Shown piece by piece: positions 317-26,576 of a stretch of DNA of 43,163 nt. Within the stretch, counting starts at the first letter, position 1, and the number at the start of each line of letters is the position of its first letter. Origin of the DNA: Patescibacteria group bacterium (GTDB lineage Bacteria; Patescibacteriota; Minisyncoccia; Phycocordibacterales; Zambryskibacteraceae); assembly GCA_038058485.1 (NCBI GenBank), contig JBBUBA010000022.1:1-43163 (forward strand), read 5' to 3'. Made by a program: the position numbers and the translations under genes. A model generated the notes under the pieces. It saw only the letters and a program-made list of their open reading frames with translations, ran no database searches and was not told the DNA's origin.

Positions 317-323
317 TATATGT

Positions 324-352
324 TTGACTTTGTAGTTTTTCTGTGATAGAGT
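324..352 (+). promoter_or_regulatory. putative promoter TTGACT-17-TAGAGT (cassette A, gene 1)
   Basis: Hexamers with a 17-nt spacer, back to back with the tRNA-Lys promoter and about 40 nt upstream of the ORF. Confidence 0.5.
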
Positions 353-391
353 CGCAAACAGACCTAGTATCTTGACTTCTTACATGCGGCC

Positions 392-1399
392 TTGCCGCGG
401 GGGTGGAACTTGACTGGGCTCATCATAGCAACACTCTTTTTCATCGGACTCGCGATTGCAATCAGAGTCCTCGCAACCTTCAACCTTCTGTGGACCTTCG
501 TCCCGGCCAACACCTTTGCCTTCGTTACAGGCAAGGGCAATGAGTCGGGCAGCATCGAAAACGGAGGTGGCGGCATTGTGGACATCATCCACAATGTCCC
601 CGGCAAGAGACTGGTGAAGACGAGCCCCGACAAGATGAAGTGGAAGTTCGTCGATGGTGTCGAGAGACGGAGCATCCTGTTCCTGTTCCTCGATGTGATC
701 TGGATCGGCCCATTCAGGACGCTCCGGACCAACAAGATCCATCGCTTCCGCTTCGGGAAAAAGAGTGACGAAGAGGTTGATGAGGACCACCTTATGTCAG
801 GTGATCTCGTCACTAAGTATGTCCCCTTCTCCGGGGAGCAAGCCGTCTCCATCAAGAAGGCCGAAACGAAGAGTATCTTCGGTCTCGACATCATCTTCAA
901 TGTCATTCAGGAGAAGACTCTGCCACTCAAGTCCGTCATCCGACTCGCCGACAGTAGCGCCTTCCTCTCCAGTATGATCAAGGAGAAGGTGATCGGCATT
1001 ACTGGCACGGAGAGTCCAGAGTATTTCCTGAAGGGCCCGGAAGCCAACAAGAAAAAGCTTGTCAAGGCCGCCGAGAAAGTGAGCAAGGCAGCTTTCGAAG
1101 AGCTTGGCACGACCATGACAGAAGTCACCATCGCGGCCCTCGATCCCGATGAGAAGAATCGAGAACTCTTCGAGCTCGATGAGCGGAGGAAGCGTGAGGG
1201 TCAGGCTGACCTCACCAAGGCGACATTCGCGGCAAAAGCCAAGAAAAAGGACAATGACGCCGATGCCGATCGTGTCGAGCGAGTCATCAAGCCCTCAGCC
1301 GAAAACGATCGTACCGTCAAGGTGGCGCAAGCCGAAGCCTATAGGTACAACACGACGGTCACGGTTGTCGGAGCTACTCCGATGACACAGGTTCCGTAA
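392..1399 (+). CDS. membrane-anchored protein, tentatively SPFH/band-7-like, in a GC-rich block
   Basis: Longest frame. TTG start at 392, with an alternative TTG at 410 preceded by GGGGTGG. N-terminal TM helix, then a globular part and a charged K/E/A-rich tail resembling SPFH-family layout by eye. Promoter upstream, hairpin plus T5 downstream. Family call is weak. Confidence 0.6.
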   Translation: MPRGWNLTGLIIATLFFIGLAIAIRVLATFNLLWTFVPANTFAFVTGKGNESGSIENGGGGIVDIIHNVPGKRLVKTSPDKMKWKFVDGVERRSILFLFLDVIWIGPFRTLRTNKIHRFRFGKKSDEEVDEDHLMSGDLVTKYVPFSGEQAVSIKKAETKSIFGLDIIFNVIQEKTLPLKSVIRLADSSAFLSSMIKEKVIGITGTESPEYFLKGPEANKKKLVKAAEKVSKAAFEELGTTMTEVTIAALDPDEKNRELFELDERRKREGQADLTKATFAAKAKKKDNDADADRVERVIKPSAENDRTVKVAQAEAYRYNTTVTVVGATPMTQVP

Positions 1400-1415
1400 C
1401 AGCACTTTGCACCGA

Positions 1416-1444
1416 GGCCAGCCAGAACAATGGCTGGCCTTTTT
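1416..1444 (+). terminator. intrinsic terminator
   Basis: GGCCAGCCA / TGGCTGGCC 9-bp stem, 6-nt loop, followed by TTTTT. Confidence 0.7.
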
Positions 1445-1449
1445 CATAC

Positions 1450-1479
1450 TTGACAAAATGTAATCATTTGTGCTATAAT
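1450..1479 (+). promoter_or_regulatory. consensus promoter TTGACA-18-TATAAT (cassette A, gene 2)
   Basis: Perfect hexamers. GGGGAG SD 8 nt before the ATG at 1530. Confidence 0.6.
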
Positions 1480-1529
1480 ACAAAAAGACATCGGACTATG
1501 AAGTTCTAACCCTAAGGGGAGATCCTTCC

Positions 1530-2240
1530 ATGAGAACGTTCCTCCGGAGCCTCACGGCACGGATAGCGCTCGCCATCACAAACTGGCGATCGGCTCGCAA
1601 GAAGAAGCCCAAGAAGTCCAAGTCTGGGCGCAAGTCGGGCAGGCTCCACATGATCACCCGAACCCAGTGGGTGGTGGCAATCGCCACCTTCATCGTTGTG
1701 GCTCTGATCTCACAGATGGCCTTCGGTGATACCAACTGGATGAGTTTCTTCACGAAACTCGGTCTTGTCGGGCTCGCCATCCTAGCCATCTGGCTCCTGT
1801 ACAAGCTGGTGCAGAAGCCGAGCTGGCGCGAGGTGGGGAGCAAACATGCAGGTGCAGTAGCGATCTGCTTGATTGCGATTGGCGCATTCGTGCTCGTCTT
1901 TCTCTTCATTCGCAATGACATGCGGAAGAGCGAGGAAGCCGAGCGTGCTCGACAAGACCGGATCGCAGAACTTGCGAGGCCACAATACGACACGGTCGTT
2001 GCACAACAATCCACCTGGAGCGATTCCATCGCACCCGGCCCCAACAAGAGGCTCGAGTGGCGGAGGATGAACCCGGTCTCCTACGCGGTCTACTACATGA
2101 CCGCGAGCGGAAACTCCGAGGTGGTCGAGTTCAACAAGAACTCGACCACCTTCCAAGAGATTCCCCCGTTCCTCTGGGTGAAGTTCATCTCGAGGGAGAC
2201 GGAGGCGGCCAGCATTCTGATCACAGAAACCTCCAGGTAA
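1530..2240 (+). CDS. hypothetical membrane protein (basic N-terminus, about 3 TM helices, C-terminal soluble domain)
   Basis: ATG with SD, GC3-rich codons, hydrophobic segments, terminator downstream. No family recognised by eye. Confidence 0.65.
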   Translation: MRTFLRSLTARIALAITNWRSARKKKPKKSKSGRKSGRLHMITRTQWVVAIATFIVVALISQMAFGDTNWMSFFTKLGLVGLAILAIWLLYKLVQKPSWREVGSKHAGAVAICLIAIGAFVLVFLFIRNDMRKSEEAERARQDRIAELARPQYDTVVAQQSTWSDSIAPGPNKRLEWRRMNPVSYAVYYMTASGNSEVVEFNKNSTTFQEIPPFLWVKFISRETEAASILITETSR

Positions 2241-2245
2241 CAAAC

Positions 2246-2283
2246 AGATCCCCGCGAGCCAATTTATCGGCTCTCGGGGATCT
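2246..2283 (+). terminator. GC-rich hairpin, probable terminator
   Basis: AGATCCCCGCGAGCC ... GGCTCTCGGGGATCT, 14 of 15 bp. The T-tract is weak (TCTTTAGTTT). Confidence 0.5.
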
Positions 2284-2298
2284 TTAGTTTGTATTTAT

Positions 2299-2565
2299 TT
2301 ATTGACCGAGGTATGTAGGCTGGCTCACACCGAATGTGCCAAGGACAATACGTATGAGTCCGTAGGCACTAAACATGATGAACATGCCTATAAGCCCGTA
2401 GATAATTTTCTGCTTGCCCTTTTCGCGCTCAGTGCTCTCCCCTGCTTTAGAAATAAACTGGAAAATGCCAAAGAAGAAAACTAGAACGGCTATGGCAAAG
2501 ACAAGGATGATGAGAGGGTTAATGATTGCCACATTAACCTTGTTGAGAAAATTGGAGATATCCAT
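2299..2565 (-). CDS. VirB2/TrbC-like (T4SS-pilin-like) small membrane protein, paralogue 1
   Basis: TM1, short charged loop (AGESTEREKGKQK) and TM2. Aligns by eye with the next three ORFs (FFG..FI...G....KGK..IYG). Confidence 0.65.
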   Translation of the reverse strand: MDISNFLNKVNVAIINPLIILVFAIAVLVFFFGIFQFISKAGESTEREKGKQKIIYGLIGMFIMFSAYGLIRIVLGTFGVSQPTYLGQ

Positions 2566-2580
2566 GAATCTCCAGAATGT

Positions 2581-2940
2581 TTAGAGTCCCGGTACAGATG
2601 GGATACCGCCCGTAACTTGACCACCAGTCTGAACTCCAAGTGAGCCAGCGATGAATCCTACTAGACCCCAAACTGCAACCATGACGAAGAGAGCAATAAT
2701 ACCGTATATCATGATGCTTTTGCCTTCGGCTTTTGATTCCTCATTGCCAGCAGCAAAAATAAACTTCATCAAGCCCCAGAAGAAAGCAAGGAGCGCTAGG
2801 CCGACAACTATAGGAAGGGCCGCAGAGACCAGCCTACTAATAGAGCCAAGCAGAACCTGAAGATTGTTTAAATCTGGAGAGCCTTGGGCTAATGCCAAGC
2901 TAGGAGCGAAAGCGAGGGTGGCGTATAGTAATTTTTTCAT
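2581..2940 (-). CDS. VirB2/TrbC-like pilin paralogue 2 (signal peptide)
   Basis: Start taken at MKKLLYATLAF...ALAQG (signal peptide). Core FFWGLMKFIFAAGNEESKAEGKSIMIYG followed by a second TM. Confidence 0.7.
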   Translation of the reverse strand: MKKLLYATLAFAPSLALAQGSPDLNNLQVLLGSISRLVSAALPIVVGLALLAFFWGLMKFIFAAGNEESKAEGKSIMIYGIIALFVMVAVWGLVGFIAGSLGVQTGGQVTGGIPSVPGL

Positions 2941-3038
2941 GTGTCTAACTAACAAATGTTATTTGTAATATACCGGGAAGGGTATGACTATATGATACCC
3001 CAGAGTTCAGTAACTTCAACACGGCTATCCACTACAAG

Positions 3039-3410
3039 CTAGATGGATGCACTAGATCCTTGATTCCACCAACCTCCTCCTTGTGGTTGATTGACACCAT
3101 CAATACCTAACTCCTTTTGGAAAAATCCGATAATCCCCCAAACTGCTACCATTACAAAGAGGGCAACTAGTCCCCACTTCATTAGATTCTTTCCTTCCTC
3201 GATAGCCTTCTCATCTCCTCCAATCTTGAAGATGAACTTGACGAGCCCCCACATAAAGACAAGTAGAGCCAGACCTGCAACCACTACAATAGCCTGCCTT
3301 GTCAAACTGCCAACAGCAATAATAAGCTCTCCTGTTTTCGTAAGCTGAGCAAAAGTTACTAAAGGAAAAAGCAAAAGCCCTACTGGTAATATGTTTTTGT
3401 ATAATTTCAT
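3039..3410 (-). CDS. VirB2/TrbC-like pilin paralogue 3 (signal peptide)
   Basis: Signal peptide ..TFAQ. Core FMWGLVKFIFKIGGDEKAIEEGKNLMKWG followed by a second TM. Confidence 0.7.
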   Translation of the reverse strand: MKLYKNILPVGLLLFPLVTFAQLTKTGELIIAVGSLTRQAIVVVAGLALLVFMWGLVKFIFKIGGDEKAIEEGKNLMKWGLVALFVMVAVWGIIGFFQKELGIDGVNQPQGGGWWNQGSSASI

Positions 3411-3420
3411 TTAATTTCTA

Positions 3421-3708
3421 TTATTGTCCTGTCGGCAATACCGGTATGCCGAATGGTCTGCTGAAGCCGATGTCTCGGTAAGCAAACCTGATGATCCCCA
3501 CAAATGATAGCATCACAAAGAGAGAAATTAATCCCCATATCATCAAACTCTTACCCTCCTCATGACTCTTAGTGTCGCCAGACTTAGCTATGAACTTCAC
3601 TATCCCCCAGACGAAAATGAGAGTTGCTAGACTAAAGAGTACTGGCAATGCGAGCATAATAAGTCTTAAGAAGATTACTACCAACTCGGATAAATTGCTT
3701 GGAGGCAT
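3421..3708 (-). CDS. VirB2/TrbC-like pilin paralogue 4
   Basis: Core FVWGIVKFIAKSGDTKSHEEGKSLMIWG followed by a second TM. Its ATG overlaps the stop of the upstream gene (TAATG). Confidence 0.7.
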   Translation of the reverse strand: MPPSNLSELVVIFLRLIMLALPVLFSLATLIFVWGIVKFIAKSGDTKSHEEGKSLMIWGLISLFVMLSFVGIIRFAYRDIGFSRPFGIPVLPTGQ

Positions 3709-4157
3709 TATGGTGTCGATCTTAGAGAATCAATAGTGCCAGTAATAACATTAGTTAGTACTACAGCCCCAAGTAATATGGCTGTCCCGATAACGGTATA
3801 GAGGAGAGCCCTCTTGGCTGTCTCAAGTTTGGTCGGATCTCCTTGAGCTGTGACAAAGAGAAAACCAGACCAAATGAAAGCAATCACCGCTACCACGCCG
3901 GCCAAAGGCAAAAGCACTTTCTCTACCACTGCTTTGATAAATTCAGGAAGACTATTCCCAAAATTGAAAGGATTGGGGATGCTAGTGTTCACTCCCTGGG
4001 TGTTTCCCCCTCCATCATTTCCGGCAGTAGGACCTCCTCCATCCTGCGCAGGAGGTGGATCTTGCGGATCATTGGGTAAATCAGCGCGAACCGCAGAAAC
4101 TCCAGCACCAGAAGACAAAATCATCATTAGAACCAAAGTTAGAAAAATTTTTTTCAT
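3708..4157 (-). CDS. VirB2/TrbC-like pilin paralogue 5 (signal peptide, P/G-rich linker)
   Basis: Signal peptide, P/G/D-rich region, then AFIWSGFLFVTAQGDPTKLETAKRALLYTVIG followed by a second TM. Confidence 0.65.
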   Translation of the reverse strand: MKKIFLTLVLMMILSSGAGVSAVRADLPNDPQDPPPAQDGGGPTAGNDGGGNTQGVNTSIPNPFNFGNSLPEFIKAVVEKVLLPLAGVVAVIAFIWSGFLFVTAQGDPTKLETAKRALLYTVIGTAILLGAVVLTNVITGTIDSLRSTP

Positions 4158-4162
4158 CTGTT

Positions 4163-4507
4163 TTATCTAGGTGCTCCTAGAAGCGAGTAACCCTCGTTAG
4201 GTTTAAGTAGCACATTAGTAATAGTATAGACTATGAGCCACGCTGCAAGAACAAAAATGAATCCCTTGAGAACACTCACCGCAGCGTTTTTGGCCTTCTC
4301 TCTTGCTCCAGTATCACCTCCAGAAGTTACAAGAGTGAAGCCAATCCACATGAAGGCGATAGTGGCAAGAATAACGGAGATGACAACCAAATTGTTTATA
4401 ACAGCTACAGCAAGAGCTATGAGGTCATTAAAACCGCAAGGGTGCGCATATTTCGTAGGTTCATCTACTCCGCACACTATCATTGATTCCAAGACGCCAA
4501 AATTCAT
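4163..4507 (-). CDS. VirB2/TrbC-like pilin paralogue 6
   Basis: AFMWIGFTLVTSGGDTGAREKAKNAAVSVLKG followed by a second TM. Its start overlaps the stop of the upstream gene by 4 nt (ATGA). Confidence 0.6.
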   Translation of the reverse strand: MNFGVLESMIVCGVDEPTKYAHPCGFNDLIALAVAVINNLVVISVILATIAFMWIGFTLVTSGGDTGAREKAKNAAVSVLKGFIFVLAAWLIVYTITNVLLKPNEGYSLLGAPR

Positions 4508-6397: not shown

Positions 6398-6426
6398 TTG
6401 ACAAAATAGATATCTGGGTGTATGAT
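6398..6426 (+). promoter_or_regulatory. promoter TTGACA-17-TATGAT (cassette B)
   Basis: Hexamers with a 17-nt spacer. GGGAG SD 6 nt before the ATG at 6462. Confidence 0.55.
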
Positions 6427-6461: not shown

Positions 6462-6893
6462 ATGAAAAACCATCACCCCGACCGCGGATATATCATCCGC
6501 TTGTCGGCCACCATGACTGTGATGTTGGGGCTCATGTTGAGCATCAACATCTACGAGGTCGTGGCCCAGACTCCGCGGCAGGAAGTCCAGATGCGGATCA
6601 TGGCCCAGACGGCTGGGACGAACGGACCGATGACGGTGCGCTCGGATTCCGGCAGCCTGCGAACCCTTACCGTCGTTGGGGGCCAGATCTTCAGGATCAC
6701 CCTCCAGTCGGTTGGCGCCTCTGCATGCCAGATGAACTCCCCCTTCGTGGGTGGCGTGCCCACGAACTGGACGAGTGAGGGTAATCCGGGCGAACGGTTA
6801 TACCCCGCTCCCGGCGGCAAGACGATCATCAAGTTCGCCTGCACCAACATGGTGCAGAGCGCCCAAGACAGTGTCGTCATCTCCCGACAATGA
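6462..6893 (+). CDS. secreted/anchored single-domain protein related to the repeat domain of the 28182-30338 surface protein
   Basis: N-terminal hydrophobic segment. SACQMNSP...NPGERLYPAPGGKTIIKFACTN..AQDSVV parallels TACQMSPS...NPFYPSTSTPVTITITCTNG..ASDTVV. The block is GC-rich (68 of 120 GC over 6481-6600 by hand). Confidence 0.65.
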   Translation: MKNHHPDRGYIIRLSATMTVMLGLMLSINIYEVVAQTPRQEVQMRIMAQTAGTNGPMTVRSDSGSLRTLTVVGGQIFRITLQSVGASACQMNSPFVGGVPTNWTSEGNPGERLYPAPGGKTIIKFACTNMVQSAQDSVVISRQ

Positions 6894-6914: not shown

Positions 6915-6948
6915 AAGCCCCGAGCGACACATCGCTCGGGGCTTCTTC
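6915..6948 (+). terminator. intrinsic terminator of cassette B
   Basis: GCCCCGAGCG / CGCTCGGGGC 10-bp stem followed by TTCTTC. Confidence 0.6.
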
Positions 6949-6970: not shown

Positions 6971-8572
6971 TCAGGCTGCGGCTTTTTCTTCCGTTTGAAG
7001 CAAGTGTCTAAGTCGATTTTTGACAACCTGTTCGATGCGATTAATATATTCTGTATGCCCAGGGAGATCTCCAGAACTATGGAAAACCTTATCCGGATTT
7101 GTAGTTCCTTGAGATTTTCCCCGACCTTTTATTTCTAATGGTAATCTTCCTCTGTAGTACAAAACTTTAGATGGGCGAAGTCCTGGATTATGTTTGAAAA
7201 CATTTTCCCAATATTCTTGGCTAGTTACGGTTGATTCAGGCCTCATAAATACCTCTCCAGCTCTTTCATAAGACTTTTTAAAAAATAGTTCTACAGTCTC
7301 GATATCCAAATACATCAAATTCCCATCTTCTTGAAAAAACTCGAGAAAGACTTTCTTGGAATCAAAACCGAGTCTTTTAATAAATTCTTCTGATGGATCA
7401 AAGCTCCAACCTTTTTCATTTCTTATGACTCTCAGTTCTTTAAGAGCCAGGAGAACATCTTTTTCATTTCTTCTTACAAAATTCATTTGCTCTAAAATCC
7501 TTGGATTGGGCACGGGTTTGCCTTTAGCATCCAGAACATATTGGGAGCCGCTTACTGGGTCTACCTCTATATTCTCTGGAATACATACCAACCCAGCATT
7601 CACAGGAATCCCTCTTCCTTCGTTCCATACAAAAACATCATTGTCATAGTCCTCTCGCTCGTTACCAGTTTTCTGAAGTTCTTCTTCTGGAGCTCGCGCT
7701 TTACTTCTGTGAAAATAATTCTTTGAAACGAATTCGGCTGGATAGTAGAAATAAATGTCATAGCCTCGTTCCGCTCCATACATTTTTCCCAACACTTCAT
7801 TAAACCCGAAGTGTACTGAAGAAAGTTCTGCGGCAGGTCTTCCTTCCGCACTCAACTCTGTTCTTTCAATACCCTCCCAAATATCATCTACTATTTTTTC
7901 ATTTGATATTTGTGGGTTCAGCATTCTTAGAACTTCGATACTTTTCTTCAAATATCCGTCAATGTGTGGATTTCCTGACTCTAATCCACTAAGGTAAGAG
8001 ACCAGTTTCTTCTCTTTCAATATCTCAACAAAATTATTATGGAATTCTCCATCTCCCATTGATCCATACCCAGATGTAGAAGAGAAGCTTTTCTCTCGCA
8101 CTCCTTGCCTTGTAACATGAGACACAAAATTACCTGAAAGCCGTTTGAGAAGGATTAAATAATTTTCGAGATTCATTTCCGTCATCGCTTCCTCCGAAAG
8201 ATACTTTTCCTGTTCTTCTGGAGTGAGGGGTGACCTTTCAAGTACTTTCGCAAGCTCTCGCTCGAATCTTTCTTGGGCCTCCTTAATTAATTCTTCTTTC
8301 TTCTTACCCGCCACTTCGGCTAGTTTCGTTTCAAGTTCTTTGAGATATTGTCTTTCGAAAACGCGGTCAAAGAGACTTTCATGAAGTCTTTCGTATATCT
8401 CTTTAGCTCGATAGTCCTCTAAGAGCTCACTCCCCTCGAGTTCTTTGCCAGATGTCTTGAGTTTTCGTATCTTTCGAATTCTTTGGGCTGTCTCGTCTCT
8501 TAGTTCTGGGGCTAGTTCTTTTGAAAATCTTCTTTTTAAATTTTCGGGAGGAATTTCTGGTGCTTCAAACAT
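6971..8572 (-). CDS. hypothetical protein, 533 aa, charged coiled-coil-like N-terminus, no family recognised
   Basis: Long uninterrupted frame with backbone-like composition. No TM helices. No motif I can name. Confidence 0.7.
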   Translation of the reverse strand: MFEAPEIPPENLKRRFSKELAPELRDETAQRIRKIRKLKTSGKELEGSELLEDYRAKEIYERLHESLFDRVFERQYLKELETKLAEVAGKKKEELIKEAQERFERELAKVLERSPLTPEEQEKYLSEEAMTEMNLENYLILLKRLSGNFVSHVTRQGVREKSFSSTSGYGSMGDGEFHNNFVEILKEKKLVSYLSGLESGNPHIDGYLKKSIEVLRMLNPQISNEKIVDDIWEGIERTELSAEGRPAAELSSVHFGFNEVLGKMYGAERGYDIYFYYPAEFVSKNYFHRSKARAPEEELQKTGNEREDYDNDVFVWNEGRGIPVNAGLVCIPENIEVDPVSGSQYVLDAKGKPVPNPRILEQMNFVRRNEKDVLLALKELRVIRNEKGWSFDPSEEFIKRLGFDSKKVFLEFFQEDGNLMYLDIETVELFFKKSYERAGEVFMRPESTVTSQEYWENVFKHNPGLRPSKVLYYRGRLPLEIKGRGKSQGTTNPDKVFHSSGDLPGHTEYINRIEQVVKNRLRHLLQTEEKAAA

Positions 8573-13766: not shown

Positions 13767-13795
13767 TTGACAGAACAAACTAAGTATGATAGTAT
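13767..13795 (+). promoter_or_regulatory. promoter TTGACA-17-TAGTAT (cassette C1)
   Basis: Hexamers with a 17-nt spacer. AGGAGA SD upstream of the ATG at 13875. Confidence 0.5.
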
Positions 13796-14287: not shown

Positions 14288-14338
14288 CCGCCCGACGGAG
14301 CCGCCCGGCTCACACGTCGGGCGGTTTCTTTTTTTTCT
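14288..14338 (+). terminator. intrinsic terminator
   Basis: CCGCCCGACG ... CGTCGGGCGG 10-bp stem followed by TTTCTTTTTTTT. Confidence 0.75.
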
Positions 14339-14438: not shown

Positions 14439-14615
14439 ATGAGTGAGAATGATGAGCTTCCAACACACCTCTGCCACTACTGTGGCAAAACCTACACAGG
14501 GCCACTCGGCCAGCATGGTTGCGCTGAACAACTCGCGGAAGTAGCGAGGATGAAAGCTCGGAGAGATCGGCGCTATGGCAAGCTAGGTGCCATCAAGACC
14601 GCGAACGAAAAGTAA
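14439..14615 (+). CDS. 58-aa Cys/His-knuckle mini-protein (HLCHYCGK...HGC) with a basic tail
   Basis: ATG at 14439 lies 5 nt after GGAGA. Terminator hairpin overlaps the stop. Confidence 0.5.
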   Translation: MSENDELPTHLCHYCGKTYTGPLGQHGCAEQLAEVARMKARRDRRYGKLGAIKTANEK

Positions 14616-14647: not shown

Positions 14648-14672
14648 ACCACAGAGGATCCTCCTATGGGGT
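14648..14672. repeat. right copy of the perfect 25-nt direct repeat
   Basis: Identical to 13337-13361. Ends 4 nt from the pth stop codon. Confidence 0.95.
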
Positions 14673-14675
14673 AAA

Positions 14676-15164
14676 TTACCCGTTGAATTGGGTTTGGGCT
14701 GATTGGAGACTGTCGGAGATTATAACTTCCACTGCAGTCACGACATTTTTGAAAACTTTTTTGAGGGTTTCCTTTTCGGTTGGAGTAAATTTGCCCAGAA
14801 TGTGTTTTTCTATATCACTCTTCTTCCCTATTCCAATTCTTATCCTAATAAATTCTTTAGTTTTGACGGCACGAATAACAGACTCAAGACCTTTGTGCCC
14901 GCCAGAGCCTCTGTTCCAAGATATTTTCATCGTTCCCACCGGTAAATCTAAGTCATCATGAATGACAATCAATTTCTCGGCTGCCTTCTTACTTTTGATT
15001 ACTTTAGCCACAGCTACTCCCGATTTATTCATAAATGTGTCCTGATGAATAAACTTGGCCTTCACCTCTTTCTTTTCTAGAGCCTCAACTGCCATCTTTC
15101 CCGTGTTGTGACGAGTTAGAACATACTCTTCGCCCGGATTGCCTAGTCCAATTATTGTGTACAT
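14676..15164 (-). CDS. pth: peptidyl-tRNA hydrolase
   Basis: MYTIIGLGNPGEEYVLTRHNTG.. N-terminus. Start taken at this Met rather than 15182. Confidence 0.9.
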   Translation of the reverse strand: MYTIIGLGNPGEEYVLTRHNTGKMAVEALEKKEVKAKFIHQDTFMNKSGVAVAKVIKSKKAAEKLIVIHDDLDLPVGTMKISWNRGSGGHKGLESVIRAVKTKEFIRIRIGIGKKSDIEKHILGKFTPTEKETLKKVFKNVVTAVEVIISDSLQSAQTQFNG

Positions 15165-15194: not shown

Positions 15195-15779
15195 ATGGAA
15201 CCGAATACCACCCCTGCTCCTGTTCCAGAGAAAGAAACAAGTTTTTGGAAGGAATTAGTGAAGCTGGCAGTGATTGCCGTGGTTATCATTATTCCCTTTC
15301 GTCTTTATATCGCACAGCCATTCGTGGTAGATGGAGCCTCAATGGATCCAACCTTCAGAAACGGGCAGTATCTCGTGGTGGATGAGTTCTCCTACCATTT
15401 TAAGACCCCCATTAGAGGATCTGTGCTTATTTTTAGATACCCTAAGGATCCTAAAAAATATTTCATCAAGAGAGTGATTGGACTTCCAAATGAGCAGGTA
15501 GCAATCAACAATGGGGAGGTCACAATTATAAATACAGATAATCCAAAAGGATTCCTTCTCAATGAACCATACGTAAAACTAACAAAGGACGAAACTGAAA
15601 CTTACATTCTCAAAAGTAAGGAGTACTTTGTAATGGGAGACAACCGCGCTGGCAGTGCTGACTCGAGACTTTGGGGCCCGGTACCAGAGAAAAATATAAT
15701 TGGGCGCCCAATTGCTCGCCTTTGGCCTCTTGGTCTTTGGCCAGGAGTAGAACCAGAATACACAAATGCGTCCCATTAG
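15195..15779 (+). CDS. lepB: signal peptidase I
   Basis: N-terminal TM, catalytic-Ser box DGASMDPTF and GDNRAGSADSR box. Confidence 0.9.
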   Translation: MEPNTTPAPVPEKETSFWKELVKLAVIAVVIIIPFRLYIAQPFVVDGASMDPTFRNGQYLVVDEFSYHFKTPIRGSVLIFRYPKDPKKYFIKRVIGLPNEQVAINNGEVTIINTDNPKGFLLNEPYVKLTKDETETYILKSKEYFVMGDNRAGSADSRLWGPVPEKNIIGRPIARLWPLGLWPGVEPEYTNASH

Positions 15780-15847
15780 AAGCTCACTAGTACAAGCTAT
15801 GAAATTAAATCATTATCAGAAAGTAATAAGCACTAGCTTCTAACGGG
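15772..15847. repeat. 76-nt element X bounded by 13-nt inverted repeats CCCATTAGAAGCT / AGCTTCTAACGGG
   Basis: The left arm overlaps the lepB stop. The right arm abuts the ATG at 15848. 15762-15852 matches the reverse complement of 34942-35032 at 86 of 91 positions by hand alignment. Confidence 0.85.
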
Positions 15848-17002
15848 ATGCGCAAAACTGAATTTGATAAGCCTCTTTGGATAGCAGCTCACTTCGGCTT
15901 TGTGCCGATGGAGGCTCCATCAATCTCGGAAGAGGATGTTCGAATGACTAAAGACTGCATGCCTGCGCATGCAGGCGATGAGAAGATTGATAAGGCTTCT
16001 GGTTCACCCCGCCTTGGCGGGGCAAGCCTCATCTGTAACGCTCCAGAGAAGGCTGCCTTTATTCGTCATTGCGTTGAGAAAAAACTGTCAGAATCCCTCT
16101 TCCCTCTTGCTCTATCTTGGCGCAGAGGCCGAGATTATGCACTCGAGCTGGTGGGCTACCCCATAGGAGTGGCCGAGGCCAAACTCATTCGTGCTTCCCT
16201 TTCAATCCTAAACGAAGAAGGTTACAAGGATCTGAAGGTTGAGATAAATTCCATCGGAGACAAAGACTCCATCATGGCCTACGAACGAGAGCTCCACACA
16301 CACCTGCGTAAGGCTGGACATGACTTATCGACCGAACTGAAGAAAATTTTTAAAGAAGATATTTTTGCTTTGGCTAAAGCTCAAGGTGAGGAAGCGGAGA
16401 ATTTGAAGAAAAATATGCCTTCTTCTGTGGCTAGTCTCTCGGCACCGAGCAGAGTGCAGTTTAAAGAAGTCATAGATTATTTAGACGCCTTAAAAATAGA
16501 GTATCGCTTTGCCCCAGAACTCGTTGGACACAAAAATTTATGTTCGGAGACTTTATTCGCAGTGAGAGATGCTGAAAACCGCCTCCTTGCTGGAGGCTAC
16601 AGATATTCAAGACTTTCAAAACGCTTTGGTTTCAAAAAAGAACTTTCCTTAATTGGAGCTACGATTTATGGCGAGAAGAAAATTAAGGATGTCAAAGTCT
16701 ACAAGGAAGCTCCTAGAGCTAGGTTCTATCTGGTGCACCTAGGCCGTGAGGCTAGGATGAAGGCCCTGTCCCTCATAGAGCTCCTGCGCTCATGTCACAT
16801 ACCAATCTATCACTATCTGGGCAGAGATAAGCTTGCAGACCAAATGCAGAGCCCAGAAGCCATACGTACACCGTATCACTTGATTGTCGGACAAAAGGAA
16901 GCTCTCGACAATACTGTCACCATAAGAAACGTTGGCAGTCGTGCTCAAGACACAATTGAAATGGCTCGCCTTCCCGACTACCTCAAGCATTTGCCGATTT
17001 GA
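15848..17002 (+). CDS. HisRS/HisZ-like class II aaRS paralogue (divergent)
   Basis: FGFVPMEAPSISEE resembles motif 1. The C-terminal anticodon-binding-like region reads LIVGQKEALDNTVTIRN. The canonical RYERPQ-type segment is not evident. Confidence 0.55.
   Translation: MRKTEFDKPLWIAAHFGFVPMEAPSISEEDVRMTKDCMPAHAGDEKIDKASGSPRLGGASLICNAPEKAAFIRHCVEKKLSESLFPLALSWRRGRDYALELVGYPIGVAEAKLIRASLSILNEEGYKDLKVEINSIGDKDSIMAYERELHTHLRKAGHDLSTELKKIFKEDIFALAKAQGEEAENLKKNMPSSVASLSAPSRVQFKEVIDYLDALKIEYRFAPELVGHKNLCSETLFAVRDAENRLLAGGYRYSRLSKRFGFKKELSLIGATIYGEKKIKDVKVYKEAPRARFYLVHLGREARMKALSLIELLRSCHIPIYHYLGRDKLADQMQSPEAIRTPYHLIVGQKEALDNTVTIRNVGSRAQDTIEMARLPDYLKHLPI
16974..16998. repeat. left copy of a perfect 25-nt direct repeat CCGACTACCTCAAGCATTTGCCGAT
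   Basis: Encodes the last codons (..DYLKHLPI) of the HisRS-like gene. Identical 25-mer at 17430-17454. Confidence 0.95.
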
Positions 17003-17027
17003 CAAACTCAGTGTAGTATAGTAATAT
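16999..17027 (+). promoter_or_regulatory. promoter TTGACA-17-TAATAT (cassette D1)
   Basis: The -35 box starts directly after the repeat and overlaps the TGA stop. The ATG at 17026 from the ORF track lies inside the -10 box. Confidence 0.55.
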
Positions 17028-17064
17028 GCAAGCAGGCTCGAACTTCACTCAACCGGAGGTTTAC

Positions 17065-17319
17065 ATGGTGTTCATTTTCAAGTCTCTTGGCGTCGCGGGG
17101 TTCATCGCTTTGAGCTTCACCGTGTATGCCCTGGTCGGAGGAATTCTGACTCTCTTCCATGTCGCTCAACACGGCTCCCTGTCACAAGTAGTGATAGTGG
17201 TTGCACTGGATACCATGCTGATTCTGATCATTGTCGGCTTCGTCAAGTTCCTCGTATACGCATGGAAGAATACCGATCGCATCGCATCTGGCAAAATCGC
17301 AACTCCCTTCAGCTCCTGA
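17065..17319 (+). CDS. 84-aa two-TM mini-protein
   Basis: ATG lies 5 nt after GGAGG (AACCGGAGGT context). Two hydrophobic helices. GC3-rich codons. Confidence 0.6.
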   Translation: MVFIFKSLGVAGFIALSFTVYALVGGILTLFHVAQHGSLSQVVIVVALDTMLILIIVGFVKFLVYAWKNTDRIASGKIATPFSS

Positions 17320-17351
17320 CAAAATTGGGAGCTTTTTCATACAAATTTCAC

Positions 17352-17373
17352 AACATACGATATATCGTATGTT
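17352..17373. repeat. perfect 22-nt palindrome AACATACGATATATCGTATGTT
   Basis: Seen directly. Lies between the D1 stop and the right 25-nt repeat, with no T-tract after it. Confidence 0.9.
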
Positions 17374-17429
17374 AATAACTACACGTCATAATTTTGCTAC
17401 CGCACAACATTGACGTATGAGGAATTTCA

Positions 17430-17454
17430 CCGACTACCTCAAGCATTTGCCGAT
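17430..17454. repeat. right copy of the 25-nt direct repeat
   Basis: Followed by A TAA, so ..DYLKHLPI-stop can be read here too. Confidence 0.95.
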
Positions 17455-17514
17455 ATAAATAGCGTATTTACTGAACTCTGCAACATCATATCAGACACTA
17501 ACCGGAGGTAGCAA

Positions 17515-17739
17515 ATGAAAGCTCTTAAGCTCCTCTTCATTATCGGAGGCATGGTGGAGGTTGGAATAATCAGCCTTTCCACCGCCTTCGCTGTGAAAAT
17601 CATCGAGGTAATCACCACTCTCGACAGCTTCACGCTGGTAAGCGTGACCATCATCTGGATACTGATGGTCATGGTCTCCATCGTGTTCGGCTACGTGCTC
17701 TACATCGGTTGGAAAGTGTACAAGAAGATGCCTCGCTGA
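17515..17739 (+). CDS. 74-aa two-TM mini-protein (same architecture as 17065-17319)
   Basis: ATG preceded by AACCGGAGGT, as for D1. Two hydrophobic helices and a basic C-terminus. Confidence 0.6.
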   Translation: MKALKLLFIIGGMVEVGIISLSTAFAVKIIEVITTLDSFTLVSVTIIWILMVMVSIVFGYVLYIGWKVYKKMPR

Positions 17740-17764
17740 ATGCCCGCGAAATGATGCCCCAACT

Positions 17765-17800
17765 AGCCGGGCGAATCTAGTACAGATTCGCCCGGCTTTC
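17765..17800 (+). terminator. GC-rich hairpin, probable terminator
   Basis: AGCCGGGCGAATCT / AGATTCGCCCGGCT 14-bp stem followed by TTCACG (weak T-tract). Confidence 0.55.
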
Positions 17801-17845
17801 ACGTTATTGCAGGCTTAAATATATTGTGTTAGAGTTTCCCGACAA

Positions 17846-21926: not shown

Positions 21927-21952
21927 AAAGGCGAGCGTTTGTGGCGCTCGCC
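21926..21952 (-). terminator. terminator for the minus-strand cassette E gene
   Basis: GGCGAGCG / CGCTCGCC stem. A TTTT follows it on the minus strand. Abuts the trxB stop codon. Confidence 0.55.
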
Positions 21953-21978: not shown

Positions 21979-22551
21979 CTAGAAGTTGTGGTTGAGCCCG
22001 TAGCTCACGACGAGCTTTCTTCCATTGCAACAGTTGTTGGCAACCACAAACCCAAGAGTGACCAGGCTAGCGATTGCCCCAACTACCGGCGCCGCACGTG
22101 CGATTGAGCTCCTCGTGCGTACCTCCGTCTGAGAGCCCGGATTGTTCCGAGTAAACCGCCTGTTCTGGTCTTCGATCCTCGCCGCAGCGACTGCATTGGC
22201 GATGGAGTCACTCCGAGCCATCGAGGCAATGACGATGCGGGCCGTTTGCTGGGCCAGCAGGTCAATGTTGATGGTCCTGGGCAGGTAGATCGTGTCCCGC
22301 CCAAGTGAGAGGGGTCTCACTCCCATACTGCGATTGGTATCCGGACGAAGCGCCGACGTCCTCGGTCTCGTAACCGAGACACGACGAACGGGGCAGGGAC
22401 GGACCTGCAACGTACCACGTACCACCGCCGCATTCCCGGTAGTATCCCGGAAAAAGGAGTAGTAGCACTTGGTCGTTGAGTCAACCTGCGCCACCGACTT
22501 GCTTGGGGAAGCAAACCAGAGACCGATGAGAAACATCATGTTACGGTACAT
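21979..22551 (-). CDS. secreted protein with a C-terminal hydrophobic anchor, R/T/S-rich, GC-rich block
   Basis: Signal-peptide-like N-terminus ..SKSVAQ. C-terminal APVVGAIASLVTLGFVV. GGAGGGG SD. No family recognised. Confidence 0.55.
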   Translation of the reverse strand: MYRNMMFLIGLWFASPSKSVAQVDSTTKCYYSFFRDTTGNAAVVRGTLQVRPCPVRRVSVTRPRTSALRPDTNRSMGVRPLSLGRDTIYLPRTINIDLLAQQTARIVIASMARSDSIANAVAAARIEDQNRRFTRNNPGSQTEVRTRSSIARAAPVVGAIASLVTLGFVVANNCCNGRKLVVSYGLNHNF

Positions 22552-22596
22552 GTCCCCTCCGGAGTTTAGTCCAGTGTGTGGGTTGGTTCTATCGCT

Positions 22597-22625
22597 ACCC
22601 TATAACAAAACCAGCCACTTGTAAA
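22597..22625 (-). promoter_or_regulatory. promoter TTTACA-17-TAGGGT (cassette E)
   Basis: Read on the minus strand, about 45 nt upstream of the ATG at 22551. Confidence 0.45.
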
Positions 22626-22681: not shown

Positions 22682-22771
22682 TGGCGGAAGAGGTGAGATT
22701 CGAACTCACGGTAAGGTTTCCCCTACGCCGGTTTTCGAAACCGGTGCCTTCAACCACTCAGCCACTCTTCC
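22682..22771 (-). tRNA. tRNA-Ser(CGA), CCA encoded
   Basis: Reverse complement GGAAGAG..CCGGT-TTCGAAA-ACCGG, a long variable arm, GTGAG-TTCGAAT-CTCAC, then CTCTTCC-G-CCA. Confidence 0.9.
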
Positions 22772-22908: not shown

Positions 22909-23142
22909 TTGATAAAAAGTCTAGTGTCGAAAACCCCTTGGGTTTATGTTGGGTCTACTGAAGATGTAAACAAGAGACTCAAACAACATAATCTAGGCCA
23001 AGTGTTTTCTACAAAAGGCCGATTGCCTTATAAACTAATCCATAGTGAGAAATATCAAACACTTAAAGAAGCTAGATCTAGAGAGAAAGAAATTAAAGGA
23101 TCTAGAATTCTGAAAGAAAGTTTGGTAAGAAAATATATTTAA
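22909..23142 (+). CDS. GIY-YIG nuclease family protein (small URI-domain type)
   Basis: ..WVYVGSTEDVNKRLKQHN.G....TKGRLPYKL..SE......A..REKEIKG. The TTG start is uncertain. The frame is open from 22816, and the GIY-like strand FVYLIKS lies partly upstream of the called start. Confidence 0.75.
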   Translation: MIKSLVSKTPWVYVGSTEDVNKRLKQHNLGQVFSTKGRLPYKLIHSEKYQTLKEARSREKEIKGSRILKESLVRKYI

Positions 23143-23765: not shown

Positions 23766-23769
23766 AATT

Positions 23770-24345: not shown

Positions 24346-24370
24346 CCTGCCTGCCAACCCGGCAGGCAGG
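24346..24370. repeat. GC-rich hairpin CCTGCCTGCC-aaccc-GGCAGGCAGG followed by TATAAT
   Basis: 10-bp stem. Related GCAGGCAGG motifs occur at 22858-22875, 25085-25103 and 11979-11994. Confidence 0.8.
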
Positions 24371-24457
24371 CAGTATAATGGGTTCGCAAAAAGAAACTCC
24401 GGCAGGAGTGAGCGAAAAATGTTGAGAAGTTTGATATAATTTTTGTTCATTAAACAC

Positions 24458-25012
24458 ATGTCAGAACTTTTACCAAAAAGAATCTTTTTTACAAAAGGAG
24501 TCGGGGTTCATAAGGAATACTTAACTTCGTTTGAACTAGCCCTCCGTGATGCCGGAGTAGCTCCATTTAATCTCGTCTCGGTGTCAAGCATCTTTCCGCC
24601 CAATTGCAAACGGGTGTCTCGAGAGGAAGGACTTAAATATTTGAAACCGGGATCAATAGTACATTGTGTTTTAGCGCGTCTTGCAACCAATGAACCTAAT
24701 CGCCTGGTAGCGGCTTCGATTGGTGTAGCCATGCCATCGGATCCCAATCAATATGGGTATCTTTCAGAGCACCATCCTTTTGGTGAGACCGAGACAAAAG
24801 CGGGTGAATATGCGGAAGACCTTGCAGCGACCATGCTTGCCACAACTCTTGGCATTGAATTCGATTCAAATACAGCTTGGGACGAGCGAGAACAACAATA
24901 TAAGGCCTCCGGCAAAATTATCAAAACTTCTAATTTCACTCAATCCGCTCAAGGTAATAAAGACGGTCTTTGGACAACTGTTTTAGCTCTTGGGGTATTT
25001 GTAATGGAATAA
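24458..25012 (+). CDS. pdaD: pyruvoyl-dependent arginine decarboxylase
   Basis: ..[12 protein letters not shown]......[10 protein letters not shown]....NLV.VSSIFPP with the Ser-Ser self-cleavage site. Alternative start at 24443. Confidence 0.85.
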
Positions 25013-25037
25013 TTTAGGGAGTTTTTAAGAATTAGTA

Positions 25038-25067
25038 TTAATATCAAGGTTCTTAATATCAAGGTTC
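25038..25067. repeat. perfect tandem duplication, 2 x 15 nt, TTAATATCAAGGTTC
   Basis: Seen directly. Lies downstream of pdaD and upstream of the cassette F promoter. Confidence 0.9.
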
Positions 25068-25123
25068 GATCTCGATATTTTAATCCGGCGGGCAGGCAGT
25101 ATATATAGGTCACATTCAGAAAC

Positions 25124-25153
25124 TTGACACGAAATGCAGATCTGGGTTACCAT
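25124..25153 (+). promoter_or_regulatory. putative promoter TTGACA-18-TACCAT (cassette F leader)
   Basis: Perfect -35 box and weaker -10 box. The spacer resembles that of the cassette B promoter (..AGAT(AT)CTGGGT..). Confidence 0.4.
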
Positions 25154-25282
25154 ACCTAAGTAAACATATGAAATCTCTCTCAAGAAAGACATCTGTTTGG
25201 TTCGCTTATTTTGCCCATTTTGAAACCCGAAATCGGGGGATTTTCTCTATCTTGTAAACACTAAAATTTTGAAGGATACGAA

Positions 25283-25308
25283 ACGACCCCCATTTGGGGG
25301 TCGTTTTT
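25283..25308 (+). terminator. intrinsic terminator/attenuator within the leader of the 25414 gene
   Basis: ACGACCCCC / GGGGGTCGT 9-bp stem followed by TTTT. Confidence 0.7.
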
Positions 25309-25413
25309 GTTTGGGATTTGCTCACAAAATCTTGCTAGCAGATCCCAGGTAAACAACCTGGTCGAGAGACAGCCTCTTGAAGTTCTTTATAAACTACAGA
25401 ACAAGGAGGGGGG

Positions 25414-26169
25414 ATGAAATACGATAGAGTGGCGAAGCGAGCGGTTGTCAAACTCCGAGGAGCGAGCTTAGAGGCTTTTAACTTCATCGAGAACCTTGAA
25501 AGTGCTGAACTCAACGCCATTCCCGAACTTTGCTCGGCCTTGAGCTCACCAGTCATCTCGCTCGTCGGATTTTCCTGCGCTTTCGGTGGTGGAGACGAGA
25601 AGGATATCACCATCATTGAGCGCGGATTCTTCGAGAAGAGAACGAGAGCAAAGACGGAGGAGCTCGTGAGCTCTCTTCGAGGTCTTGGTAAAGAAGTCAA
25701 AATGACTATCTTTATTGAGGATCTCGAACTTCGCCGAGTGTGGGGATGGTCAAGAAGTCAGGAAGAGATCACAGCTGAGTGCGAGTTCCAGATTGAACTC
25801 GCAAGAGAGAGCGGAGAAGTTCCACCAGGTGTAGATGTGAGACTATGGTCTACCGTCGAACCTGATGCCGTCTCCGCTGGCTCTGCTACACATGAAGAGG
25901 TTCTTGTGTGGGCTAGAGAATCTGGCCAATCTCGCATTCTTGATATCATCGCTCGTCATCGCCAAACATATCCGAGAAACAAGGGAGTGAGTTTGGCGAG
26001 TTTGCGAGCAACATCGGTGACGGGCCTCGCGGGCTACAGTCTCGTGGGCGAAGCTCTTGAGATTCTCTACCCAGACAGCATTCTCGTCCAGCCGGCTCAC
26101 CCTTGGAGAGATCACTTGATGGGATACCGGCGCAAACGTGTCCTACCCATCATCCATCCATGGAGATAG
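25414..26169 (+). CDS. hypothetical soluble protein, 251 aa, GC-rich block
   Basis: Strong SD (AAGGAGGGGGG) directly before the ATG, GC3-rich codons. No family recognised by eye. Confidence 0.65.
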   Translation: MKYDRVAKRAVVKLRGASLEAFNFIENLESAELNAIPELCSALSSPVISLVGFSCAFGGGDEKDITIIERGFFEKRTRAKTEELVSSLRGLGKEVKMTIFIEDLELRRVWGWSRSQEEITAECEFQIELARESGEVPPGVDVRLWSTVEPDAVSAGSATHEEVLVWARESGQSRILDIIARHRQTYPRNKGVSLASLRATSVTGLAGYSLVGEALEILYPDSILVQPAHPWRDHLMGYRRKRVLPIIHPWR

Positions 26170-26171
26170 GT

Positions 26172-26228
26172 ATGAGACACCGCACTCTGAATCGTTGTTG
26201 TGGAGGTGTTGCGGCCTACAACTCATGA
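26172..26228 (+). CDS. 18-aa Cys-rich mini-peptide MRHRTLNRCCGGVAAYNS
   Basis: The ATG lies 2 nt after the upstream stop and 5 nt after GGAGA. Shares MRHRxxxRCCGG with the next small ORF, with mainly synonymous codon differences. Confidence 0.45.
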   Translation: MRHRTLNRCCGGVAAYNS

Positions 26229-26267
26229 GATTCCAAATCTACGAACGAATTGGAAGGAGGTGATGAC

Positions 26268-26576
26268 ATGAGACATAGGAGCTTTACTCGCTGTTGCGGA
26301 GGGCTCCCTCTGCACTGTTCTGTGGAACGAGATCCAACCGGCGAGGTCTACCCCTCGCCGGTTTTTTTCTTTTTAAGACCCTTCACGAAGAGGGTCCCTC
26401 CGATAATCATAACCACTGCTCCAATTATTGGTACGAACAAACCTATAAATATTGAGCCATTACTTGGCTTCAGGGTTGAACCGAACAAGACTAATAGGGC
26501 GGTCACTGCAGTGTTCATTGGCCACAAAATAAGGATGAAGTTTCGATATGGTAAACGACTAAGTCCAGCGCCGTAA
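26268..26576 (+). CDS. second MRHRSFTRCCGG... mini-ORF, 3' end uncertain
   Basis: Strong SD GGAAGGAGG. The frame stays open through the terminator at 26336-26368 and then runs antisense to the DedA-like gene. Only the 5' portion is likely meaningful. Confidence 0.3.
   Translation: MRHRSFTRCCGGLPLHCSVERDPTGEVYPSPVFFFLRPFTKRVPPIIITTAPIIGTNKPINIEPLLGFRVEPNKTNRAVTAVFIGHKIRMKFRYGKRLSPAP
26336..26368 (+). terminator. intrinsic terminator of cassette F
   Basis: CCGGCGAGG / CCTCGCCGG 9-bp stem followed by TTTTTTT. Its 3' half also encodes the last codons (TGEG-stop) of the convergent gene. Confidence 0.75.

Follow-up and report, generated by a model that had tools for sequence, protein, structure and literature searches.

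Bacteria of the Candidate Phyla Radiation (CPR, or Patescibacteria) possess very small genomes, and gene exchange is regarded as their chief route to innovation; how single genes arrive in such genomes and become expressed is poorly known. This question is raised in concrete form by a 43,163-nt segment of the chromosome of a groundwater Parcubacteria (CPR) bacterium, hereafter the window, in which six blocks of genes (A to F) stand among conserved housekeeping genes. A reading of the letters alone (the original prediction) had interpreted these blocks as promoter-bearing cassettes captured by a system mobilized in trans, with no nameable counterpart. The comparative analysis presented here indicates that the pattern is real but is no new kind of mobile system. 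On balance, the blocks are taken to be accessory-gene islets resembling phage morons, which are exchanged within the phylum and lodged in permissive gaps with no dedicated cassette-capture apparatus.

The window was assigned to a CPR chromosome because it contains six tandem T4SS_pilin genes (2299 to 4507) along with a housekeeping set; its genes include a solute-binding protein (SBP) gene, gyrA, S1, pth, lepB, a divergent HisRS-like gene (hisS), ybeY, ftsA, ftsZ, trxB, tsaD, and valS. A scan of the genome collection with FtsA yielded 20 syntenic loci in Parcubacteria metagenome-assembled genomes (MAGs) of the Zambryskibacteria/Minisyncoccia type, the nearest of which is a sibling (L001) with ∼85% nucleotide identity, and a scan of metagenomes with S1 added 80 further loci. 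The order gyrA-MBL-S1-pth-lepB-hisS-orf83-ftsA-ftsZ-trxB is conserved across this clade (21 genome and 80 metagenome loci), while the GC content at third codon positions (GC3) of the core genes spans 0.31 to 0.81. Shine-Dalgarno (SD) motifs, defined as GGAG, GAGG, or AGGA located 4 to 17 nt upstream of the start, are nearly missing from the core, being found in ∼1/36 backbone genes of the window and, among relatives' core genes with well-defined starts, in 4/245, whether the host is low or high in GC. Many backbone genes of the window have a −10 box 6 to 8 nt before the ATG, and across the clade, trxB, SBP, and pth usually carry one 4 to 10 nt ahead of the start codon. Such close spacing implies that leaderless mRNAs are widespread among the core genes.

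The block genes depart from this backbone in composition. Compared with same-size windows outside the blocks, GC content is strongly elevated in A (0.542; z = 6.7), B (0.583; z = 5.3), and E (0.568; z = 5.2), and moderately in F (0.492; z = 3.0); given their z scores, C (0.472; z = 2.0) and D (0.468; z = 1.5) are not significant as whole blocks, although their open reading frames (ORFs) are rich in GC3. By ORF, GC3 is 0.81 in B, 0.77 in A2, 0.75 in D2, 0.71 in A1, 0.69 in E, 0.64 in D1, 0.56 in C134, and 0.52 in F, against a backbone mean of 0.40 (standard deviation, 0.065; 37 genes). The GC peaks lie exactly where the original prediction had placed them, even if C and D are weak as wholes, and its hand counts (68/120 at 6481 to 6600 and 25/60 at 7021 to 7080) are exact. 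The relative synonymous codon usage of the blocks does not correlate with that of the window backbone (r = −0.16) but resembles that of housekeeping genes from high-GC members of the clade (r = 0.81 to 0.83 for L024 and 0.71 to 0.78 for L012), including their unusual preference for the CTC leucine codon, compared with r = 0.53 for a Desulfobacteraceae control of similar GC3.

The expression signals are equally distinctive. An SD motif precedes 9/10 block genes, compared with the ∼1/36 of the backbone (Fisher test, P = 9e-8; the chance rate of the motif in block sequence is 0.136). A typical unit spans 0.4 to 2 kb and one or two genes and consists of a consensus −35/−10 pair, a 25- to 45-nt leader with the SD, a GC3-rich ORF, and an intrinsic terminator, so that each appears to possess a promoter and a factor-independent terminator of its own. 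A consensus scan located TTGACA-type sites upstream of A1 (324), A2 (1450; 12/12), B (6398; 11/12), C134 (13767), D1 (16999), and F (25124), and the site of E was identified by eye; the role of the F site is doubtful because it lies 260 nt upstream of the gene with two terminator-like hairpins in between. A hairpin closes every block unit, in several cases with a T-run. The description of the blocks as self-contained units of foreign-looking composition, with an expression grammar unlike that of their surroundings, holds, apart from the promoter of F.

The clearest evidence of insertion comes from block D, in the gap between hisS and orf83. The sibling (at 4522/4524) and two other relatives from the same samples (L028 and L029) join these two genes directly, lacking 16999 to 17815 to the base. 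A perfect 25-nt sequence corresponding to the 3′ end of hisS is present at 16974 to 16998 (+) and again at 17430 to 17454 (+), the second copy leading into the Ile-stop context that the gene had originally. Between the copies lies a 431-bp insert that provides hisS with a new stop and, before it, a synonymous final codon, both formed by the first bases of the D1 promoter (TTGACA-17-TAATAT; 16999 to 17027, +). The insert continues with D1 itself, an 84-amino-acid (aa) protein with two transmembrane segments (17065 to 17319, +; SD GGAGG), its terminator (17311 to 17333, +), and a perfect 20-nt palindrome, ACATACGATATATCGTATGT (17353 to 17372), that is unique in the window. Beyond the right repeat follows D2, a 74-aa protein, likewise with two transmembrane segments (17515 to 17739, +; SD GGAGG), with a terminal hairpin at 17765 to 17797 (+). 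The geometry of the repeat is that of attL/attR or of a single crossover via short homology. If D1 were excised, its circle junction would read ...GAGGAATTTCA-CCGACTACCTCAAGCATTTGCCGAT-TTGACAAACTC, and the D1-empty site would read ...GCCGAT-ATAAATAGCG. Neither D1 nor D2 was seen in excised form or at another site: a metagenome scan for D1 gave no relatives, a look-up of D2 gave no variant lacking D1 (6/6 D2-carrying contigs also carry D1), and no other copies of the palindrome or of the 25-nt repeat were found.

Block C, in the gap between S1 and pth, is a composite of an IS481-like stub with host-like GC content, one GC-richer unit (C134), and an ancestral small gene. It is framed by a 29-nt direct repeat (13337 to 13365 and 14648 to 14676, both +) in which a single position is mismatched and 25 nt form a perfect core; the right copy of this repeat abuts the pth stop codon; the original prediction had correctly noted repeats at the edges of two blocks, this one and D. 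The stub (13361 to 13711, −; 116 aa; GC3 0.40) comprises only the helix-turn-helix (HTH) N terminus of the transposase (Pfam HTH_32/HTH_38/HTH_23). A homologue (P0022) extends into the DDE/rve region; neither a DDE part of the stub nor terminal inverted repeats were found in block C, and the stub is a remnant of an insertion sequence (IS), not an active IS. The orphan C134 (13875 to 14279, +; 134 aa; SD AGGAG) has a TG-extended promoter (TTGACA-17-TAGTAT; 13767 to 13795, +) and a strong terminator with 13 pairs and T8 (14297 to 14328, +). Downstream, a small Cys-rich, zinc-ribbon-like protein (14439 to 14615, +) shares 66% aa identity with L001 455 to 595 and, being present at the same locus in the sibling, lies outside the recent insertion. 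The C134 segment is absent from the sibling, and in L005, S1 and pth are only 71 bp apart. The C134 segment is thus, like D1 and D2, a true insertion, and the absence of all three from a relative of ∼85% identity identifies at least these as new arrivals.

The sibling carries a different unit in its S1-pth gap, encoding a 431-aa orphan (978 to 2273, +; GC3 0.79) with TTGACT..TATAAT, GGAGG, and a hairpin. The C terminus of this protein contains an HPD-containing, J-domain-like stretch (..CVHPDRLNG..), and the protein has no Pfam match. A 48-aa HTH stub (L001 660 to 860, −) lies divergently upstream of the gene, mirroring the layout of the IS stub and C134.

Conversely, blocks A and E are not insertions. 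Block A, on the 5′ side of tRNA-Lys(CUU) (205 to 278, −; ARAGORN and Rfam), comprises two units. A1 is an SPFH/Band-7-like membrane protein (410 to 1399, +) with a TG-extended promoter-like site (TTGACT-17-TAGAGT; 324 to 352, +) and a terminator hairpin with a T-run (1421 to 1446, +); A2 is a membrane protein with multiple transmembrane segments (1530 to 2240, +) that has a 12/12 consensus promoter with TG (1450 to 1479, +), the SD GGGGAG (1516 to 1521), and a terminal GC-rich hairpin read from the sequence (2247 to 2282, +). Homologues of A1 are confined to Parcubacteria/Minisyncoccota, and two of them carry PF01145, the SPFH match of A1 itself being weak. A1 is syntenic beside the pilin-SBP cluster in L023, L024, L063, L076, L081, and L083, and a weak A2 homologue occupies the same position in L023; at this cluster, the relatives of A1 and A2 share 30 to 49% aa identity with them.

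Block E lies next to tRNA-Ser(CGA) (22682 to 22771, −; ARAGORN and Rfam) and has a promoter (TTTACA-17-TAGGGT; 22597 to 22625, −), the SD GGAGG (∼22555 to 22560), the gene (21979 to 22551, −), and a terminator (21930 to 21952, −). The gene is a positional orthologue across a subclade, located downstream of trxB on the opposite strand and encoding a signal peptide that ends in AQ, a hypervariable middle, and a C-terminal Cys-containing transmembrane anchor; one true homologue was found among 1.84e9 representative proteins. Compared with the sibling, E is 39% identical at the aa level, whereas trxB is 81% and ftsZ 95% identical. The promoter and signal-peptide part and the anchor are conserved (93 to 95% nucleotide identity over 22027 to 22106), whereas the central ∼400 nt are unalignable. 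This mosaic, with conserved ends and a swapped center, implies recombination, and ongoing import of alleles fits its structure. Because A and E have positional orthologues in relatives, they are ancestral at their loci by the very standard that the original prediction had set for itself, and its claim of insertion is upheld for D1, D2, and C134.

The products of blocks B and F, like A1, point to an origin within the phylum. B, a secreted single-domain protein (6462 to 6893, +) with its promoter (TTGACA-17-TATGAT; 6398 to 6426, +) and terminal hairpin (6915 to 6944, +), is equivalent to one copy of a ∼95-aa two-Cys repeat of a surface protein encoded in the same window (BLASTP, 30 to 35% identity to four repeats; E ∼2e-9). 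That native protein (28182 to 30383, −; 733 aa; secreted/anchored) contains at least four such tandem domains (29134 to 29964) and a peptidoglycan-binding domain, and its orthologues in relatives also have the B-type domain. Exact-protein look-ups of B and of the TTG-start FtsZ returned no match. B shares the SBP-gyrA gap, which is closed in most relatives, with o533 (6971 to 8572, −), an AT-rich (GC3 0.32), SD-less, lineage-specific orphan of 533 aa with no Pfam match and no tblastn match in ∼100 related loci.

F, a predicted cytoplasmic protein of 251 aa (25414 to 26169, +; GC 0.52; SD AAGGAGG) with a terminator of 11 pairs and a T-run (26336 to 26363, +), has homologues in Parcubacteria only, and those in L032, L033, and L034 are also GC-richer than their neighbors (0.53 to 0.54 versus 0.37 to 0.43). 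Its predicted fold resembles the class I aminoacyl-tRNA synthetase catalytic domain, cyclodipeptide synthases, and PvcA/IsnA isonitrile synthases (AlphaFold2 pLDDT of 80; Foldseek E = 4e-5; TM-score, ∼0.5), and its LVGFS motif is reminiscent of the catalytic serine of cyclodipeptide synthases. The expected character of the block products, small membrane, secreted, Cys-rich, or unknown proteins, is borne out for most, which are envelope or secreted proteins, whereas F is a predicted cytoplasmic enzyme-like protein. The ∼230- to 260-nt leader of F (25154 to 25413), downstream of the promoter-like site (25124 to 25153, +), is conserved in other Parcubacteria (L032 3550 to 3855 and L034 5720 to 6012). 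Its two terminator-like hairpins (25226 to 25239 and 25283 to 25304, +), for which L032 and L034 show compensatory changes at their F loci, may form an attenuator; the leader matches no Rfam family, with just weak leader-peptide-like matches. Upstream of F, a lineage-specific, AT-rich pyruvoyl arginine decarboxylase gene (24443 to 25012) is flanked by 43-nt direct repeats (24356 to 24398 and 25082 to 25124; 74% identical) that contain a −10 box, and from this arrangement it looks like a further insertion that duplicated its target promoter.

The gaps that hold the blocks show a consistent pattern across the clade. Four gaps, S1-pth, hisS-orf83, MBL-S1, and SBP-gyrA, are often expanded and filled by unrelated genes: S1-pth exceeds 600 nt in 34/73 loci, and hisS-orf83 exceeds 300 nt in 25/53. 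The cold gaps pth-lepB and lepB-hisS never exceed 161 nt (n = 63 to 69). Units of the promoter-SD-ORF-hairpin type are found, for example, in the hisS-orf83 gap of L003 and L008. In low-GC hosts, excluding the window, an SD precedes 19/21 GC-rich gap ORFs compared with 15/82 other gap ORFs (Fisher test, P = 1e-9). Gap ORFs differ from the host core in either direction. In high-GC hosts, 50 to 75% of the ORFs in the S1-pth, hisS-orf83, and SBP-gyrA gaps are GC3-poorer than the core by more than 0.1. In the window, the same gaps as the blocks likewise hold AT-rich, SD-less, lineage-specific genes (o533, GrpB, LigT, and ArgDC), which the original prediction overlooked.

Composition, signals, synteny, empty sites, the recurrence of gaps, and the way in which the block-gene families are distributed together form the basis for the islet explanation. 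The block units are self-contained and sit at reusable gaps, some are recent, and all are members of families specific to Parcubacteria. Under this explanation, the six blocks would be the GC-richer occupants of permissive gaps, drawn from a Parcubacteria-wide accessory pool with codon usage like that of the higher-GC members of the clade. The landing pads would be the S1-pth, hisS-orf83, and SBP-gyrA gaps, the region downstream of trxB, and the tRNA-Glu-tRNA-Val interval. The ages would be mixed: D1, D2, and C134 would have arrived after the split from the sibling, whereas A1, A2, and E would be long-term residents, the center of E still being remodeled. Arrival would be by horizontal gene transfer (HGT) between Parcubacteria, probably through DNA uptake and recombination into conserved flanks or short homologies, with occasional other routes suggested by the 25-bp att-like duplication at D1 and the IS481-like stub beside C134.

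Several observations weigh against this explanation. For none of the blocks did a donor or a nearly identical copy turn up in a different genomic background, either by blastn of all blocks against 116 loci or in the metagenome scan for D1; in the window and these 116 loci, the blocks are single copy, unlike miniature inverted-repeat transposable elements or REPINs. High-GC relatives also have SD-free core genes, and the SD is therefore a property of the gene class and does not mark a donor genome of high GC content. The phylogeny of A1 follows that of the core, since L023, its nearest relative among the loci compared, is nearest by SBP as well, and its GC3 exceeds that of the core in every low-GC host (core to A1, 0.35 to 0.51, 0.38 to 0.59, 0.43 to 0.71, and 0.51 to 0.55 and 0.72). 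E-type genes have GC3 values of 0.59 to 0.78 in hosts whose core GC3 varies from 0.41 to 0.75. The persistently high GC3 of the long-resident A1 and E is unexplained by simple recent HGT, which is insufficient here, and GC-biased conversion or selection may also contribute. Finally, the mechanism of transfer is entirely inferred.

A more far-reaching version of the islet explanation is a tentative possibility. The genome might be written in two "dialects," one being an SD-free, largely leaderless core that drifts in composition, and the other a clade-wide pool of SD-led envelope and accessory genes with consensus promoters, which would stay GC3-rich in hosts of any composition. Genes of this pool would move singly into a few gaps without an element-encoded recombinase, acting as morons of the cell that are disseminated by uptake of DNA and recombination at short homologies. 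Reportedly, about half of the Parcubacteria lack the anti-SD motif in their 16S rRNA (PMC9297842). If true, such a division would be especially odd should this lineage be among those that lack it.

Among the competing explanations, the one that survives best, although it appears unlikely, is that the composition is intrinsic to the gene class. SD-led envelope genes would keep a high GC3 because of selection, or because loci prone to recombination undergo GC-biased gene conversion, while the core of the host drifted toward AT, with no need for recent foreign origin. The behavior of the A1 orthologues and the host-independent GC3 of the E-type genes described above are what this explanation would lead one to expect, as are the tight coupling of SD and GC3 across the clade and the recombination implied by the mosaic of E. 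It does not account for the absence of D1, D2, and C134 from the sibling, and the gap genes of high-GC hosts are mostly GC-poorer than the core, as a shared pool predicts. Expression-driven codon bias was ruled out: codons ending in G and in C are both raised in the block genes, and S1, which is expected to be highly expressed, has the GC3 of the core, observations that also argue against simple translational selection. No process is known to shift GC3 by +0.3 to 0.4 in vertically inherited bacterial genes.

The dedicated system of the original prediction, in which a recombinase acting in trans mobilizes and captures promoter-bearing cassettes at many sites, is distinctly improbable. The uniform promoter-SD-ORF-hairpin grammar, the perfect 25-nt repeats at two blocks, the reuse of the same gaps by unrelated genes in many genomes, and the presence in the window of a RAYT-like Y1 transposase gene (35168 to 35827) all speak for it. 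However, the two repeats bear no sequence relation to each other, and the block boundaries share no motif or att-like site. An exact flanking repeat of ≥14 nt occurs at only 4/115 occupied gaps, and these repeats are mutually unrelated, which rules out a shared att site. The hairpins are ordinary, mutually unrelated terminators, REP-like palindromes are confined to the surroundings of the transposase gene, and neither the ancestral position of A and E nor the failure to find D1 or D2 excised or at another site fits a system of this kind. No recombinase was identified in any block by Pfam, NCBIfam, PHROGs, or PADLOC searches of the block products, as originally stated; these searches revealed no defense function either, just the weak SPFH match of A1 and the HTH of the IS stub.

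Equally improbable is that the blocks are decayed integrative elements (remnants of prophages, integrative and conjugative elements, or islands, or stubs resembling cis-mobilizable elements [CIMEs]), each cut down to one moron-like gene. D1, flanked by a duplication of the hisS 3′ end with the last codon and stop restored, looks like the attL/attR product of an integrase that targets 3′ ends; furthermore, tRNA genes lie next to A, E, and the F region, an IS481-like stub is present in C, and an HTH stub accompanies the sibling's unit. Against this, no integrase or phage gene is present, A1, C134, D1, F, and the 431-aa gene of the sibling have no relatives in IMG/VR, block A lies 5′ of tRNA-Lys, and A and E are positional orthologues.

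The weakest alternative, that assembly or binning produced a chimera or that structured RNA genes of high GC content were misread as ORFs, is effectively refuted: although contig coverage is low (∼5 to 6×) and GC-rich peaks of this genome do mark tRNAs and RNase P RNA, five independent contigs from other samples and assemblers (L022, L026, L027, L030, and L031; Hainich replicates from ENA and Logan assemblies, from groundwater well H41, 0.1-μm fraction) are 100% identical to the window and jointly span the tRNA-Lys/A junction (in L022) and all of blocks C and D, which excludes an assembly break or artifact, and a structured-RNA origin is ruled out by the strong codon periodicity of the block ORFs (for example, GC1/2/3 of 0.52/0.48/0.81 in B), by the conservation of A1, E, and F at the protein level, and by an Rfam search of 1 to 27200 (E ≤ 0.05) that found only tRNAs and no family within the blocks. 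The idea of T-DNA-like genes, designed to be expressed inside a host bacterium, was also set aside: the codon usage, with its CTC leucine codons, fits high-GC Parcubacteria, and the combination of signal peptide and anchor in the E-type proteins is the clade's own.

The islet explanation also places the blocks among known systems. Phage morons, associated with the names of Juhala and Hendrix, are the closest functional analogue. A moron is an extra gene between genes that are adjacent in relatives, with its own promoter and terminator and a deviant GC content (PMC3594210). The block units share the signals and the deviant composition, and moron products, too, are often small membrane or surface proteins. 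D1 and D2, C134, and, judging from the gap that is closed in most relatives, B together with o533 conform to the positional part of this definition, whereas A and E, as old residents of their loci, do not. Unlike morons, the blocks lie in a cellular housekeeping region (gyrA, S1, pth, lepB, ftsA/Z, and trxB), with no phage genes or viral relatives (PHROGs and IMG/VR). HGT in groundwater Patescibacteria is mostly intraphylum, and HGT islands have been published (PMC12455944). With these two precedents, the claim that the pattern has no counterpart falls. The blocks fit small genomic islets at hot spots. Such islets, like flexible islands of the additive or replacement type at conserved hot spots, likewise place atypical, variable content between core genes, sometimes adjacent to tRNAs, are enriched in surface genes, and are exchanged mostly within the phylum (PMC12455944), but the units described here are very small, have a uniform SD-led grammar that differs from the SD-free leaderless core, and lack an integrase.

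Of the features of classical islands, the window offers the 25-bp repeat of D1 at a gene 3′ end; no integrase domain is present in any ORF of its 43 kb, and block A is 5′ of its tRNA. A CIME is approximated by D1 alone, through the perfect repeat and the restored reading frame; this is one block only, and neither a cognate integrase nor an excision product was observed in the 43-kb window. Like integron cassettes, they are single-ORF units whose functions are unrelated and which gather at sites that are used repeatedly. However, as the original prediction had recognized, the units are dispersed, bear promoters, and lack attC and intI; attI is absent as well, and their 3′ hairpins are unrelated simple terminators with T-runs that share no imperfect inverted repeat of the attC type.

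Several features elsewhere in the window were also recorded. The RAYT-like gene (GC3 0.31), of the Y1 family associated with IS200 and repetitive extragenic palindromic (REP) sequences, is flanked by 18-nt REP-like palindromes (35180 to 35197 and 35841 to 35858) and by 83-nt direct repeats (35081 to 35163 and 35877 to 35959; 93% identity), and its homologues fill the S1-pth gap of many relatives. A divergent bacterial class A RNase P RNA (41961 to 42405, −) matches the model over its full length (76.9 bits; E = 2e-23), under the Rfam gathering score of 100, and accounts for the GC peak near 42 kb, outside the blocks. A leader/promoter element of ∼100 nt, 91% identical between its copies, precedes both hisS (15762 to 15861) and a DivIC-like gene (34933 to 35032). 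The element includes a long-range inverted repeat whose arms might pair over the start codon, and a 35-nt core (..AGCTTCTAACGGGATG) is also found upstream of lepA (37744 to 37785). Finally, a 77-aa GIY-YIG domain protein (22909 to 23142, +; GC 0.32) is encoded between tRNA-Ser and tRNA-Glu, with homologues of 44 to 45% identity in L081 and L083.

The locus gives a concrete and testable picture of gene gain in these bacteria, in which a few permissive gaps are reused throughout the clade, accessory genes carry a complete canonical expression kit into an SD-free, leaderless genome, and their compositional signature outlasts long residence. A simple sequence rule, an SD together with high GC3 in a leaderless AT-rich core, could flag flexible, probably host-interaction genes in Parcubacteria MAGs. 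A tractable question is raised by the use of SD motifs in a group that often lacks the anti-SD. What makes these findings interesting is chiefly that, throughout the clade, SD use, GC3, and location in gaps go together in CPR genomes that are otherwise leaderless and devoid of SD motifs.

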